From: Escherichia coli
Lineage (GTDB): Bacteria; Pseudomonadota; Gammaproteobacteria; Enterobacterales; Enterobacteriaceae
Direction: 5' to 3' (one strand)
NCBI RefSeq assembly: GCF_003334355.1
Contig: NZ_QOWP01000021.1
Length of the DNA stretch: 64,000 nt
Part shown: piece by piece, positions 1 to 53,024 of the stretch
Numbering within the stretch: position 1 is the first letter of the stretch
How the letters are laid out: each line of letters opens with the position of its first letter
The notes under the pieces: model-generated
Database searches by the model: none
Seen by the model: the letters and a program-made list of their open reading frames with translations, nothing else
Told to the model about the DNA's origin: nothing
Position numbers and translations under genes: made by a program

Positions 1-71
1 GTAGCTCAGCTGGATAGAGTACTCGGCTACGAACCGAGCGGTCGGAGGTTCGAATCCTCCCGGATGCACCA
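1..71 (+). tRNA. argZ: tRNA-Arg (anticodon ACG), 5' end truncated by window edge (first 6 nt missing)
   Basis: Identical to the full copy at 270-346 from its position 7 onward; ends in CCA at 69-71. Confidence 0.8.
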
Positions 72-206
72 TATTCTCCGAAATCTTCAGCAATGAAGGT
101 ATCGAAGAGGTAGCGGAATTAACCGCAGGCACTAGGGATGATAACGTTGCTTTAGCAACGGCCCGAAGGGCGAGCCGCAAGGCGAGTAATCCTCCCGGAT
201 GCACCA
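72..206. repeat. Inter-tRNA spacer repeat unit 1, ending in a pseudo tRNA 3'-end fragment (aatcctcccggatgcacca, 188-206)
   Basis: Near-identical to spacer 347-479; contains duplicated tRNA-Arg 3' terminus. Confidence 0.7.
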
Positions 207-269
207 TCTCTTAATTGATATGGCTTTAGTAGCGGTATCAATATCAGCAGTAGAATAAGTTTTCCCGAT

Positions 270-346
270 GCATCCGTAGCTCAGCTGGATAGAGTACTCG
301 GCTACGAACCGAGCGGTCGGAGGTTCGAATCCTCCCGGATGCACCA
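270..346 (+). tRNA. argQ: tRNA-Arg (anticodon ACG), complete 77 nt
   Basis: gcatccgtagctcagctggatagagt...ggatgcacca; cloverleaf with ACG anticodon in ggctACGaacc loop; recalled E. coli arg tRNA sequence. Confidence 0.9.
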
Positions 347-479
347 TATTCTCCGTAACCTTCAGCAATGAAGGTATCGAAGAGATAGCGGTATTAACCG
401 CAGGCACCAGGAAGGATAACGTTGCGCCAGCAACGGCCCGAAGGGCGAACGTCAGTGAGTCATCCTCCCGGATGCACCA
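347..479. repeat. Inter-tRNA spacer repeat unit 2 with pseudo tRNA 3'-end fragment (462-479)
   Basis: Direct repeat of 72-206 with a few substitutions. Confidence 0.7.
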
Positions 480-626
480 TCTTCTCCAAAAAATTTCCTT
501 CAAAAATATCTCATTTCTAAATAACTCCTTTATCCATTTCCTGAATTTTCTTCTCCTTCGCCATCAGCGACAAAATCAAGCAATTACGCTAAAGTAGCGT
601 CATATTTTTCGACTTGCGAGAAGACC

Positions 627-3255: not shown

Positions 3256-3328
3256 AAAAAGGCCACTCGTGAGTGGCCAAAATTTCATCTCTGAATTCAG
3301 GGATGATGATAACAAATGCGCGTCTTTC
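3256..3328 (-). ncRNA. micA: MicA (SraD) sigma-E-dependent small RNA
   Basis: Reverse complement reads GAAAGACGCGCATTTGTTATCATCATCCCTGAATTCAGAGATGAAATTTTGGCCACTCACGAGTGGCCTTTTT; located between gshA and luxS as in E. coli. Confidence 0.8.
3261..3285. terminator. Bidirectional rho-independent terminator (gshA / MicA)
   Basis: Hairpin ggccactcgtgagtggcc flanked by A-run upstream and T-rich tract downstream. Confidence 0.7.
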
Positions 3329-9921: not shown

Positions 9922-10103
9922 TGTAGGCATGATAAGACGCGCCAGCGTCGCATCAGGCATTGTGCACAGAACGGCGGATGCGGCGAAAACGCCTTATCCG
10001 CCATACGGAATGAGTGTATTTTGTAGGCATGATAAGACGCTCCAGCGTCGCATCAGGCATTGTGTACAGAGCGGCGGATGAGGTAAAAACGCCTTATCCG
10101 CCC
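9922..10103. repeat. REP/BIME palindromic elements (two tandem units)
   Basis: Repeated gtaggcatgataagacgcgccagcgtcgcatcaggcat and cggatgcggcgaaaacgccttatccgcc motifs. Confidence 0.8.
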
Positions 10104-32388: not shown

Positions 32389-32464
32389 GGCCCTTTAGCT
32401 CAGTGGTTAGAGCAGGCGACTCATAATCGCTTGGTCGCTGGTTCAAGTCCAGCAAGGGCCACCA
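32389..32464 (+). tRNA. ileY: tRNA-Ile2 (anticodon CAU, lysidine-modified type)
   Basis: ggccctttagctcagtggttagagcaggcgactCATaatcgc...gggccacca; recalled ileX/ileY sequence. Confidence 0.85.
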
Positions 32465-52661: not shown

Positions 52662-53024
52662 TGGTGGAGCTGGCGGGAGTTGAACCCGCGTCCGAAATTC
52701 CTACATCCTCGGTACTACATGCTTAGTCAGTCTTTACATTCGCTTGCCAGCTGCGGACGGACACGCCACTAACAAACTAGCCTGATTAAGTTTTAACGCT
52801 TCAACCCCAGGCAGGGCTTCCACGCGATCTCTTTTGGGTTTGACCTCTCTTGATCCCCGTCCTAAGAGCGGAGGCTAGGGAGAGAGGGCTCTAAGCAGGT
52901 TATTAAGCTGCTAAAGCGTAGTTTTCGTCGTTTGCGACTATTTTTTGCGGCTTTTTACGAGGCCAACCGCCCCTCGGCATGCACCTTGGGTTTCGCAAAT
53001 CCCGTCGAATCCAGAATCAGCCCC
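52662..53024 (-). ncRNA. ssrA: tmRNA (SsrA), 363 nt
   Basis: Reverse complement begins GGGGCTGATTCTGGATTCGACGGG and ends ...GGGTTCAACTCCCGCCAGCTCCACCA; tag ORF region present. Confidence 0.95.

Follow-up and report, generated by a model that had tools for sequence, protein, structure and literature searches.

The DNA analysed here, a stretch of 64 kb (hereafter, the window), starts inside the E. coli serV-argVYZQ tRNA operon, whose promoter lies upstream of serV. The operon's 3' part and its trailer are laid out as follows.

1 to 71, plus strand: the 3' 71 nt of a tRNA-Arg(ACG) gene, argZ in K-12 naming, cut by the window start (Rfam tRNA model 50.5 bits, 5'-truncated)
72 to 206, plus strand: unit B, an RtT-like spacer element of the short (Arg) form, 135 nt (Rfam RtT, nhmmer, fold z-score)
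207 to 269, plus strand: plain spacer, 63 nt
270 to 346, plus strand: complete tRNA-Arg(ACG) gene argQ, the final tRNA of the operon (ARAGORN, Rfam)
347 to 479, plus strand: unit C, an RtT-like trailer element, 133 nt (Rfam RtT, nhmmer, fold z-score)
480 to 626, plus strand: trailer, C-rich and poorly structured, holding a Rho-dependent termination region near 580
586 to 600, plus strand: weak hairpin in the trailer
627: start of yqaB

The naming of the truncated gene as argZ is backed by an identical locus (L001) and by the K-12 annotation, and ARAGORN and Rfam gave the same sequence for it as for the complete copy at 270-346. The units of the operon (A, B and C) start at the first base past the CCA of argV, argZ and argQ. 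The sequence of the 63-nt spacer is also found directly 3' of the argY CCA, where no unit sits.

A repeat search of the window paired 1-173 with 276-448 at 94% identity, and found four copies of ATCCTCCCGGATGCACCAT (starting at 54, 189, 329 and 462). In a global alignment, units B and C were identical at 118 of 135 positions (87%, one 2-nt indel), with the differences clustered in loops and in the third small hairpin; 1000 shuffles reached a mean of 56% and a maximum of 64%. The similarity of the two units described in an earlier note is thus far above chance, although "near-identical" was generous wording for 87%. That each unit ends in the last 18–19 nt of tRNA-Arg was confirmed, with 19/19, 19/19 and 18/19 matching positions in units A, B and C, respectively. 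In unit C the 18 tRNA-identical nucleotides are contiguous (462-479), and position 461 is C where the tRNA has A. The same note placed units of about 135 bp between the tRNA genes: the unit length is right, but the real distance is 198 nt, made up of the 135-nt unit and the 63-nt plain spacer, and the second unit does not separate tRNAs at all but trails the last one. The units are not tRNA pseudogenes, given that only these terminal nucleotides match and that neither ARAGORN nor the Rfam tRNA model calls a tRNA in them. Antisense Rfam matches on the tRNA genes (Plastid-ycf2 and similar) were discarded as mirror images of the tRNA far below threshold.

The fold predicted for the units has the following parts.

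83 to 100, plus strand: unit B 5' hairpin AUCUUCA-GCAA-UGAAGGU, lineage-specific
113 to 126, plus strand: unit B second hairpin GCGG-AAUUAA-CCGC
129 to 142, plus strand: unit B inner strand GCACUAGGGAUGAU, complement of the pseudo tRNA end
145 to 160, plus strand: unit B hairpin P4, CGUUGC-UUUA-GCAACG, the conserved RtT core
161 to 171, plus strand: unit B hairpin P5, GCCC-GAA-GGGC
174 to 183, plus strand: unit B hairpin P6, GCC-GCAA-GGC, co-varying
188 to 206, plus strand: unit B pseudo tRNA 3' terminus AATCCTCCCGGATGCACCA, matching the tRNA at all 19 positions
404 to 417, plus strand: unit C inner strand GCACCAGGAAGGAU
420 to 446, plus strand: unit C hairpins P4 (420-435) and P5 (436-446)
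461 to 479, plus strand: unit C pseudo tRNA 3' terminus CATCCTCCCGGATGCACCA, 18/19

Fold z-scores ranged from -4.3 to -5.4 (unit B, -4.3; unit C, -4.8). In an alignment of 34 Arg-type units drawn from about 14 species, pairing held in 96.7% of the cells, compared with 29–52% when the partners were slid, and two-sided changes occurred at 6 pairs in 24 cells, numbers matched by 6/500 and 0/500 shuffles. The closing helix of inner strand and pseudo-end has 13 bp and two single-base bulges; 95.7% of its cells were paired in the 34 units, with G-U pairs on the tRNA-sense strand, and it encloses the three hairpins P4–P6 and leaves an ACCA tail free. The P6 pair 110/119 occurs as GC in 20, CG in 9 and AU in 2 units. 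The P4 stem showed zero co-variation among the aligned Arg-type units; its invariance is silent on RNA structure and could instead reflect a constraint at the DNA level or from protein binding. The 5' half of the alignment is variable, and its hairpins differ from lineage to lineage. In the 3' half, the copied tail AUCCUCCCGGAUGC is modelled as pairing with the inner strand GCACCAGGGAGGAU, by which it would mimic the stacked acceptor and T stems of tRNA-Arg; the inner strand is identical at 10 of 12 positions to the tRNA acceptor 5' strand joined to the T-stem 5' strand.

Knowledge of RtT elements goes back to the tyrT sequence of 1978, that of rtT RNA to 1991. The Rfam family RF00391 is the rttR/rtT RNA and corresponds to the 178-bp repeats of the E. 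coli tyrT-tyrV operon. Boesl and Kersten reportedly described rtT RNA in 1991 as a discrete, stable RNA of 171 nt released from the precursor, and we know of no function of RtT elements that has been accepted so far. The RF00391 model matched unit B over its full length (79-206; 31.0 bits, E 5.6e-4), unit C at 354-479 (22.8 bits, E 0.058) and unit A with 29.2 bits, whereas the tyrT RtT units score 133–137 bits. At the curated gathering threshold of 45 bits no RtT was called in the whole window, the units reaching 23–31 bits. An nhmmer profile was built from 104 RtT units of non-Arg type after their final 14, tRNA-specific nucleotides had been trimmed; in the 64 kb it matched two places only, 138-192 (E 2.2e-13) and 411-465 (E 5.9e-10). 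Because the units score below the Rfam threshold and miss two canonical 5' hairpins, it is the 3' half only that is demonstrably homologous to RtT. The Arg units carry no annotation in RefSeq or in K-12, and our literature searches found no mention of the arg-operon spacers.

Like canonical RtT elements, the Arg units lie on the same strand directly behind a tRNA gene inside a tRNA operon, end in the last 18–19 nt of the upstream tRNA including the CCA, and occur singly or in tandem with varying copy number. They share the core AACGTTGC-loop-GCAACGRCCCGAAGGGYGAG, the third hairpin and GAGTMATCC, so that the canonical hairpins CGUUGC/GCAACG, GCCC-GAA-GGGC and the third one, followed by GAGUMAUCC, are all present, as is the closing helix of inner strand and pseudo-end. 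They differ in that the Arg helix encloses P4–P6 only, whereas the helix of the RtT model encloses five inner hairpins. In place of the canonical 5' hairpins (GAACC..GGUUC and CGAGCG..CGAG) the Arg units have lineage-specific hairpins outside the helix, and at the positions of the model's 5' hairpins the Rfam alignment shows non-canonical pairs or gaps. The Arg helix also reaches the discriminator base with only ACCA free (about 8 nt are free in Tyr units), and the tpr ORF is missing. The short-form units of the lysT operon (lysY-lysZ and lysZ-lysQ spacers) have the same short layout, with a 5' hairpin followed by inner strand, P4, P5, P6 and pseudo-end; in them the end and inner strand fit tRNA-Lys, and their 55–61 bits exceed the Rfam threshold only in alignments that borrow upstream tRNA sequence. 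The repeats of about 135 bases are a variant of the known RtT kind and no new kind of element. We consider it likely that they are diverged short-form relatives of RtT elements, that is, structured RNA modules transcribed within the serV-argVYZQ precursor.

In several gammaproteobacterial orders, genes for tRNA-Tyr, -Lys, -Pro and -Glu and for 5S rRNA are followed by the same core, mostly with an end that matches the gene in front, although the conservation of the core is partly by construction because loci were gathered by an exact core 19-mer. Of 128 core copies with an upstream tRNA, 110 match the final 19 nt of that tRNA at 17 or more positions, and lineage-specific tRNA substitutions were mirrored in the pseudo-end in 27 of 27 cases. 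The inner strand follows the local gene too. In a register-fixed test, which replaced a whole-unit duplex-energy test that was too noisy because G+C-rich ends pair anywhere, it paired better with its own end than with other ends for Arg (5.8 of 8 vs 3.1–4.1), Tyr (5.8 vs 2.3–4.1) and Lys (5.0 vs 3.3–4.1); for Pro-type ends the test is confounded by their likeness to those of Arg and Tyr. In the 5S-linked class the inner complement reads GGCAGTT. Arg-type units are retained in five Enterobacterales families, and both Arg-linked and 5S-linked units fall under the Rfam threshold and are unannotated even in K-12.

In the 5' part of Arg units the longest word shared with the own tRNA averaged 5.6, against 6.4 for other tRNAs. 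Each unit might carry the local T-stem 5' strand plus TTCGA and so amount to the 3' half of a tRNA into whose T-loop the core has been inserted. This idea was retained as a lead and no more, as only GGTTCGA proved general and the word shared with the own tRNA was barely longer than with others (8.8 vs 8.0 for Tyr, 7.6 vs 7.2 for Lys). The sole exception is a unit of Yersinia nurmii (L078), which shares a 23-nt word with its own tRNA.

RtT-type modules may belong to a superfamily far larger than its annotated part, in which one conserved three-hairpin core joins highly expressed stable-RNA genes of Enterobacterales, Orbales and Alteromonadales (those for 5S rRNA and for six or more tRNA isoacceptors), each copy with an end taken from the local gene and an inner strand complementary to it. 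The matching would then be an active one, the end being either re-templated or selected for identity; we regard this reading as rather doubtful. Re-templating might proceed by gene conversion or by an unknown enzyme that recognises the invariant CGTTGC/GCAACG palindrome; selection might act because the module rivals the gene's own 3' strand for the tRNA 5' acceptor strand, as in an alternative fold, or for 3'-end maturation enzymes. If the reading is true, the module would tune stable-RNA output.

Published Term-seq data from E. coli K-12 (Adams et al. 2021, PMC7815308) place RNA 3' ends inside both units, which supports the suggestion of the earlier note that they could be processed fragments. 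The dominant 3' end of unit B lies at window position 171 (2817959, minus strand), at the base of P5, and that of unit C at window position 446 (2817684, minus strand) in all three conditions; an end at 118, in the loop of the second hairpin of unit B, appears in one condition (PMC7815308). The dominant ends in the Arg units fall at P5, upstream of the closing strand. In the same data the tyrT-tyrV RtT unit ends 4 nt past its pseudo-CCA, the same offset as in genuine tRNA precursors, and the argY precursor ends at CCA+4 (PMC7815308). For the Arg units no end is on record at or just past the pseudo-CCA in this dataset, which contains 3' ends only and from which multimapping reads were discarded; the end of unit C should be partly unique, and CAGTGAGTCATCCTCCCGGATGCACCA is a k-mer specific to unit C. 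Termination of the operon is Rho-dependent (Rho score 39.8 at 2817550, minus strand, window position about 580; Adams et al. 2021, PMC7815308, supplementary file 2), about 100 nt past the last unit.

In K-12, transcription starts at the promoter in front of serV, reads through every tRNA and unit and is ended by Rho. Since the end of a unit resembles a tRNA end and is followed by a U-rich trailer, the nucleases of tRNA maturation probably cut the unit from the precursor as they do a tRNA, by analogy with canonical RtT: an RNase E-type cut a few nucleotides past the CCA would be followed by exonuclease trimming, and the products would be discrete spacer-derived RNAs.

The array differs widely among strains. 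Its length classes in 59 sampled genomes are spaced by steps of about 135 bp, and natural E. coli strains have 0 to 4 units at the same operon. All four tRNA sites are filled in some strains and empty in others, with precise or hybrid junctions; strain BH100 has no units but all four tRNAs, whereas some strains have three tRNAs, and partial deletions between short repeats also occur. Two hybrid empty-site junctions read CCA-TATTCTCCAAAAA (L126) and CCA-TCTTCTCCAAAAA (L128), and the unit gained at site 2 in strain R18 is a near-copy of the neighbouring unit. In Salmonella Paratyphi A, a 175-bp rtT VNTR distinguishes two strains. As natural strains without units exist, the units are dispensable. 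They turn over by recombination: a unit is flanked by long direct repeats (the 77-nt tRNA on one side, the pseudo-end and spacer on the other), so units would be gained, copied and lost through homologous recombination and gene conversion, which, as the junctions suggest, would also hold the pseudo-end identical to the tRNA. The recombination invoked by the earlier note therefore applies to changes of the array, with four sites each seen with and without a unit. Its further idea that the ends are footprints of tRNA gene duplication falls short, since the pseudo-end is a conserved, base-paired part of a structured element whose core is common to RtT units behind other tRNA and 5S rRNA genes. 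Recombination accounts well for loss but not for the first origin of a matched end and inner strand behind many genes.

As to function, we think most likely, with about an even chance, that the units are passengers tolerated by an operon with very high expression. Less likely, though possible, is a role in trans or in modulating processing, as proposed for rtT RNA.

That the units are inert scars, left by unequal crossing-over or partial tRNA-Arg duplication and without any selected structure or product, seems improbable; this reading takes up the second suggestion of the earlier note. The array is highly recombinogenic, with dispensable units, filled and empty sites, partial deletions and strains with three tRNAs or no units, and its 275-bp higher-order repeat fits duplication. 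Against such scars stand the compensatory changes in the closing helix and P6, the retention of Arg-type units in five families and the recurrence of the same core and terminal architecture behind other stable-RNA genes in several orders; moreover, the base module already has a pseudo-end, which simple tandem duplication would not give for a single unit.

We likewise see little likelihood of a small non-autonomous mobile element (MITE-like or integrase-mobilised) that makes a 17–19 bp target duplication at the 3' ends of stable-RNA genes, the pseudo-end being the target-site duplication or an attR-like repeat. The unit does sit between direct repeats of the target (13–19 nt, specific to the local gene), filled and empty junctions are exact, many different stable-RNA genes are followed by a unit, usually with the local end, and P4, palindromic and invariant, could be a site that a protein recognises. 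Yet no transposase or integrase travels along, and phage, IMG/VR and genuine plasmid records are practically free of the element; with no such carriage, a phage, plasmid or prophage origin was rejected. Nor does the distribution resemble that of a MITE: there is no third copy in the 64-kb window, and copies elsewhere all lie behind tRNA or 5S rRNA genes. The inner strand fits the local gene as well, which a target-site duplication cannot bring about, while the hybrid empty junctions point to deletion by recombination within repeats and gains such as that in R18 are what gene conversion predicts.

A cis-acting signal for processing or termination, whether an RNase entry platform, an insulator against misfolding or a part of a Rho terminator as at tyrT, appears about equally improbable. 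Rfam types RtT as "Cis-reg", Rho-dependent termination occurs just past unit C, intrinsic terminators come straight after many Lys-type and 5S-type units, and in an alternative fold the tRNA 5' acceptor strand is able to pair with the pseudo-end. However, argY in this strain and all four tRNAs in BH100 are made with no unit behind them, the Rho site lies downstream in a trailer that unit-less strains also have, and the units lack any hairpin plus U-tract of the terminator kind. A small basic protein like tpr, the "protamine-like protein" annotated inside the K-12 tyrT repeat, has next to no chance of being encoded, and we rejected the protein-coding reading on the ORF evidence: the matching place in the Arg units is ATGAAGGTATCGAAGAGGTAG, six codons and then a stop, and on the tRNA strand neither unit contains an ORF of at least 20 aa, nor do the two share one.

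Taken as diverged short-form RtT relatives, the Arg units offer a minimal form of RtT, a closing helix with three hairpins, and a clear rule by which end and inner strand follow the local gene. They indicate that standard annotation misses whole RtT subfamilies (Arg-linked and 5S-linked). The repeats explain the length polymorphism of the operon, likely problems in assembly and mapping, and orphan Term-seq peaks upstream of yqaB. Strains with 0 to 4 units are ready-made controls for studies of tRNA-Arg supply, precursor processing and the stringent response.

Three further systems invite comparison. Acceptor/T-arm minihelices are model substrates of RNase P, and tmRNA has a tRNA-like domain. 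The Arg units would share with them a helix of 12–13 bp ending in single-stranded NCCA, and differ in that a 55-nt insert of three hairpins replaces the T-loop and that the helix has two single-base bulges. Integrases that target the 3' ends of tRNA genes leave attL/attR direct repeats (Williams 2002). As with those repeats, the intact tRNA gene is followed at some distance by a second copy of its 3' end, T-loop to CCA. In contrast to them, the "cargo" of about 115 nt (114–116 nt between repeats) has no integrase or ORF, recurs behind many tRNA genes and 5S rRNA genes, has an inner strand that co-varies with the end, and has no counterpart in phage records. 3'ETS-leuZ, as summarised in PMC7815308 (citing Lalaouna et al. 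2015), arises when a tRNA precursor is processed and survives as an RNA species of its own. By that account it is a short Hfq-bound sponge that pairs with sRNAs and bears no mimic of a tRNA end, unlike the Arg units; what the two would have in common is a discrete, spacer-derived RNA released from a tRNA precursor.

Many complete E. coli chromosomes match the first 1200 bases of the window at 100% identity. The gene order, both in K-12 and in the identical strain RM14721 (locus L001; subtract 2500 from an L001 position to obtain the window position), is csrA, serV, argV, argY, argZ, argQ, yqaB, yqaA. The full operon comprises argV, unit A (134 nt), a 64-nt spacer, argY, a 62-nt spacer, argZ, unit B, a 63-nt spacer, argQ, and unit C, and a consensus scan places its promoter upstream of serV. 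The window begins within argZ:

1-71, argZ, last 71 nt
72-206, unit B
270-346, argQ, complete
347-479, unit C

The RefSeq and K-12 annotations hold no feature in the arg-operon spacers. The near-identity of spacers 72-206 and 347-479 reported in the earlier note was confirmed, at 118/135 positions (87%; 1000 shuffles gave a mean of 56% and a maximum of 64%), and a repeat search aligned 1-173 with 276-448 at 94% and found ATCCTCCCGGATGCACCAT in four copies. Both units close, as had been described, in a copied tRNA-Arg end (the pseudo-end), matching at 19/19 nt in 72-206 and 18/19 nt in 347-479. The description of ~135-bp units separating the tRNA genes applies in part: a 135-nt unit does lie between argZ and argQ, but together with the 63-nt plain spacer, and 347-479 trails the last tRNA, argQ, rather than lying between two. 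argY has no unit, and its CCA is directly followed by TCTCTTACTTGATATGGC..., the sequence that units A and B have after their pseudo-CCA, so each unit is flanked by two direct repeats of the tRNA tail.

The units are homologous to RtT (Rfam RF00391), the repeat elements of the tyrT operon. Permissive Rfam searches aligned the full 130-position RtT model to all three units with 31.0, 29.2, and 22.8 bits, short of the curated threshold of 45 bits, at which no RtT was reported anywhere in the window. The K-12 tyrT operon, where rttR and tpr are annotated, has the same design, with a single unit separating tyrT from tyrV and three in tandem behind tyrV, each closing with the last 19 nt of tRNA-Tyr (133-137 bits). 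In the alignment of Arg and Tyr units the 3' ~55-75 nt are homologous, consisting of AACGTTGC-loop-GCAACGRCCCGAAGGGYGAG, a third hairpin, and GAGTMATCC, after which the terminal 14 nt change over to the local tRNA; the 5' halves could not be aligned. A profile of 104 Tyr, Lys, Pro, and Glu units, built with the tRNA-specific end removed, had just two matches in the whole 64 kb, at 138-192 (E = 2.2e-13) and at 411-465 (E = 5.9e-10).

The Arg units also share a conserved fold that mimics the tRNA end. Single-sequence folds of the three units had z-scores of -4.3, -4.8, and -5.4, with the pseudo-end paired to an inner strand in all. For 34 Arg-type units from E. coli, Enterobacter, Kosakonia, Phytobacter, Citrobacter, Klebsiella, Pluralibacter, Silvania, Pantoea, Brenneria, Hafnia, and Serratia, RNAalifold recovered this closing helix and the enclosed hairpins P4, P5, and P6. 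Across the resulting 25-pair structure 96.7% of cells were paired, versus 29-52% with partners slid by 1-3 columns, and both-side changes occurred at 6 pairs (reached by 6/500 shuffles) and in 24 cells (0/500). The closing helix spans 13 bp (95.7% paired) and leaves only ACCA as a free tail; G-U pairs fall on the tRNA-sense strand. The tRNA-Arg 3' strand, the pseudo-end, and the inner strand change together between lineages: Hafnia and Yersinia pair AATCTTCCTGGGTGC with inner strand GGGAAGAT, and Serratia and Pantoea pair AATCCTCCTGGATGC with AGGAGGAT. No co-variation was seen in P4, where 4/6 pairs are invariant, which speaks neither for nor against the structure; the invariance hints at a sequence-specific partner. 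The inner strand GCACCAGGGAGG has 10/12 identity with the tRNA acceptor 5' strand joined to the T-stem 5' strand (GCAUCCG+GGAGG), which makes the modeled 3' domain look like an acceptor/T-arm minihelix with P4-P6 in place of the T-loop. When window 270-500 was folded as tRNA plus unit, the minimum-energy structure kept the two separate; the centroid structure joined the pseudo-end to the tRNA 5' acceptor strand and the inner strand to the true 3' strand, a swap that predicts a competing fold of the arg precursor.

The inner strand follows the tRNA type for Arg, Tyr, and Lys. In a fixed-register test counting pairs beyond the common GGAU/AUCC, Arg units formed 5.8/8 pairs with their own end versus 3.1-4.1 with other tRNA ends, Tyr units 5.8 versus 2.3-4.1, and Lys units 5.0 versus 3.3-4.1; Pro units have short helices only, and this test does not cleanly separate the Pro(UGG) end from those of Arg and Tyr. 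Each of 27 lineage-specific changes in a tRNA 3' strand recurs in the pseudo-end next to it, including the change at tRNA-Tyr position -7, which lies outside the unit's own helix, indicating that identity to the tRNA end is maintained as such, by gene conversion or selection.

Scanning a 19-base core in one genome per species yielded at least 120 loci. Among the matches listed, the core lies mostly 50-125 nt behind a same-strand tRNA gene for Tyr(GTA), Lys(UUU), Arg(ACG), Pro(UGG/CGG), or Glu(UUC), and the 19 nt after it equal the last 19 nt of the upstream tRNA at no fewer than 17/19 positions in 110/128 tRNA-linked cases; the listed matches outside Gammaproteobacteria lack a tRNA in their vicinity and are apparently fortuitous. 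A further class, located behind 5S rRNA genes, copies the 5S 3' end (AACTGCCAGGCAT) at its terminus, continues into the same CAAATTA trailer, and has an inner GGCAGTT complementary to that end. These units are unannotated and occur in 1280/5426 complete E. coli genomes (comparison loci L008, 99-221, and L048, 7794-7917; also L042, L044, L045, L054, L055, L076, L077, L084, L085, and L109). Rfam scores already place the Pro, Lys, and Glu units in RtT (91-95, 55-86, and 44-52 bits, respectively), whereas the Arg and 5S-linked units, at 28-30 bits, stay under the threshold of 45. In the E. coli lysT-valT-lysW-valZ-lysY-lysZ-lysQ array (L046, 1900-3100), short-form units built like the Arg units occupy the lysY-lysZ and lysZ-lysQ spacers; they reach 55-61 bits only when Rfam borrows part of the upstream tRNA-Lys as the model's 5' part. 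A long-form unit follows tRNA-Arg in Yersinia nurmii (L078), where 23 nt identical to tRNA-Arg (GAACCGAGCGGTCGGAAGTTCGA, anticodon loop to T-loop) immediately precede the core, and the trailer and terminator are duplicated as well. Judged by its sequence, this unit resembles the 3' half of a tRNA whose T-loop has received the core, a possible clue to the origin of such units.

Unit content varies among E. coli strains. Queried by unique flanks, 59 genomes sampled of 5426 fell into array-length classes of ~503, 638, 680, 743, 777, 909, and 1045 bp.

Occupancy of the positions behind the four arg tRNA genes (sites 1-4)
R18: unit at all four
This window's strain: unit, none, unit, unit
Strain 203740: none, none, unit, unit
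O157: none, none, partial, unit
BH100: none anywhere; exact junctions CCA|TCTCTTAC and CCA|TCTTCTCCAAAAA
ECCTRSRTH03: three tRNAs; hybrid junction CCA-TATTCTCCAAAAA
Strain 961: deletions between the inner GCACCA and the terminal GCACCA

Units thus turn over by recombination, and the extra unit at site 2 of R18 is a near-copy of its neighbor, as expected from gene conversion. For loss, homologous recombination would suffice, acting between the 77-nt tRNA and the repeats made of pseudo-end plus spacer; plausibly it could by itself also produce gain within the array. Other species show the same patchwork, and a 175-bp rtT VNTR tells apart two Salmonella Paratyphi A strains (PMC2658671).

Because E. 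coli strains have empty sites, and BH100 has no unit at all, the arg-operon units are dispensable. That natural strains do without them favors reading the units as passengers tolerated in a highly expressed operon rather than as a regulator the cell needs; the strong conservation of the core, the way the end follows the neighboring gene, and the existence of 5S-linked units leave room for a more interesting reading. The earlier note had suggested processed fragments or recombination footprints of tRNA gene duplication for the copied ends, and recombination does turn the units over; given their RtT homology and conserved tRNA-end-mimicking fold, they are better classed with the known RtT elements, as a new and short form of them, than as a scar. 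Carriage on mobile DNA was rejected on core scans of IMG/VR (5 stretches), a phage collection (four matches, namely three Salmonella enterica genome contigs and a partial match in one short unannotated phage record), and a plasmid collection (16/16 non-mobilizable, many of them multi-megabase, chromosome-sized records). A tpr-like protein-coding role was rejected, as there is no conserved ORF and the tpr frame closes after six codons, and a tRNA pseudogene was ruled out for the Arg units.

Several other RNA features lie in the window:

3257-3328 (-), MicA sRNA, adjoining luxS/gshA
9926-10003 and 10026-10103 (-), two tandem matches to naRNA4 (REP-derived nucleoid-associated RNA), one exactly at threshold (59.6 vs 59.5 bits)
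32389-32464 (+), tRNA with anticodon CAT, called Met by ARAGORN and presumably ileY, tRNA-Ile2, going by the K-12 map
43690-43777 and 43846-43923 (-), adjacent C4 antisense RNA (84.6 bits) and isrK (76.7 bits)
52662-53024 (-), tmRNA gene ssrA, tag ANDENYALAA

C4 antisense RNA and isrK characteristically belong to prophage immunity regions (P1/P7-like or P4-like), so the interval from the 32.4-kb tRNA to the tmRNA gene probably contains a prophage or island.

Published dominant RNA 3' ends of MG1655 in three growth conditions (Adams et al. 2021, eLife, PMC7815308) bear on processing. Its supplementary file 1 gives minus-strand ends at 2817684 (3/3 conditions; window 446) and 2817959 (two conditions; window 171), each the C closing P5, of units C and B, respectively, and an end at 2818012 (window 118) in one condition; none is listed near 2817651 in that study, which discarded multimapping reads. 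The argY precursor ends 4 nt past CCA (CCAUCUC|UUAC), as do the genuine tyrT and lysZ precursors (tyrV, +2), and the tyrT-tyrV RtT unit, the sole uniquely mappable canonical one in this Term-seq comparison, has an end at +4 from its pseudo-CCA (CCAUCUC|AAGC) (PMC7815308). This shared offset shows that the processing machinery treats the canonical RtT pseudo-end as a tRNA end, and we infer the same for the Arg units. Supplementary file 2 of the same study places a Rho-dependent termination region at 2817550 (minus strand; window ~580; Rho score 39.8) (PMC7815308). This very strong region falls within the C-rich trailer that separates unit C from yqaB, where the only hairpin present is a weak one (window 586-600). 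In this the arg operon parallels tyrT, at which Kuepper and colleagues reportedly described a Rho-dependent terminator in 1978.
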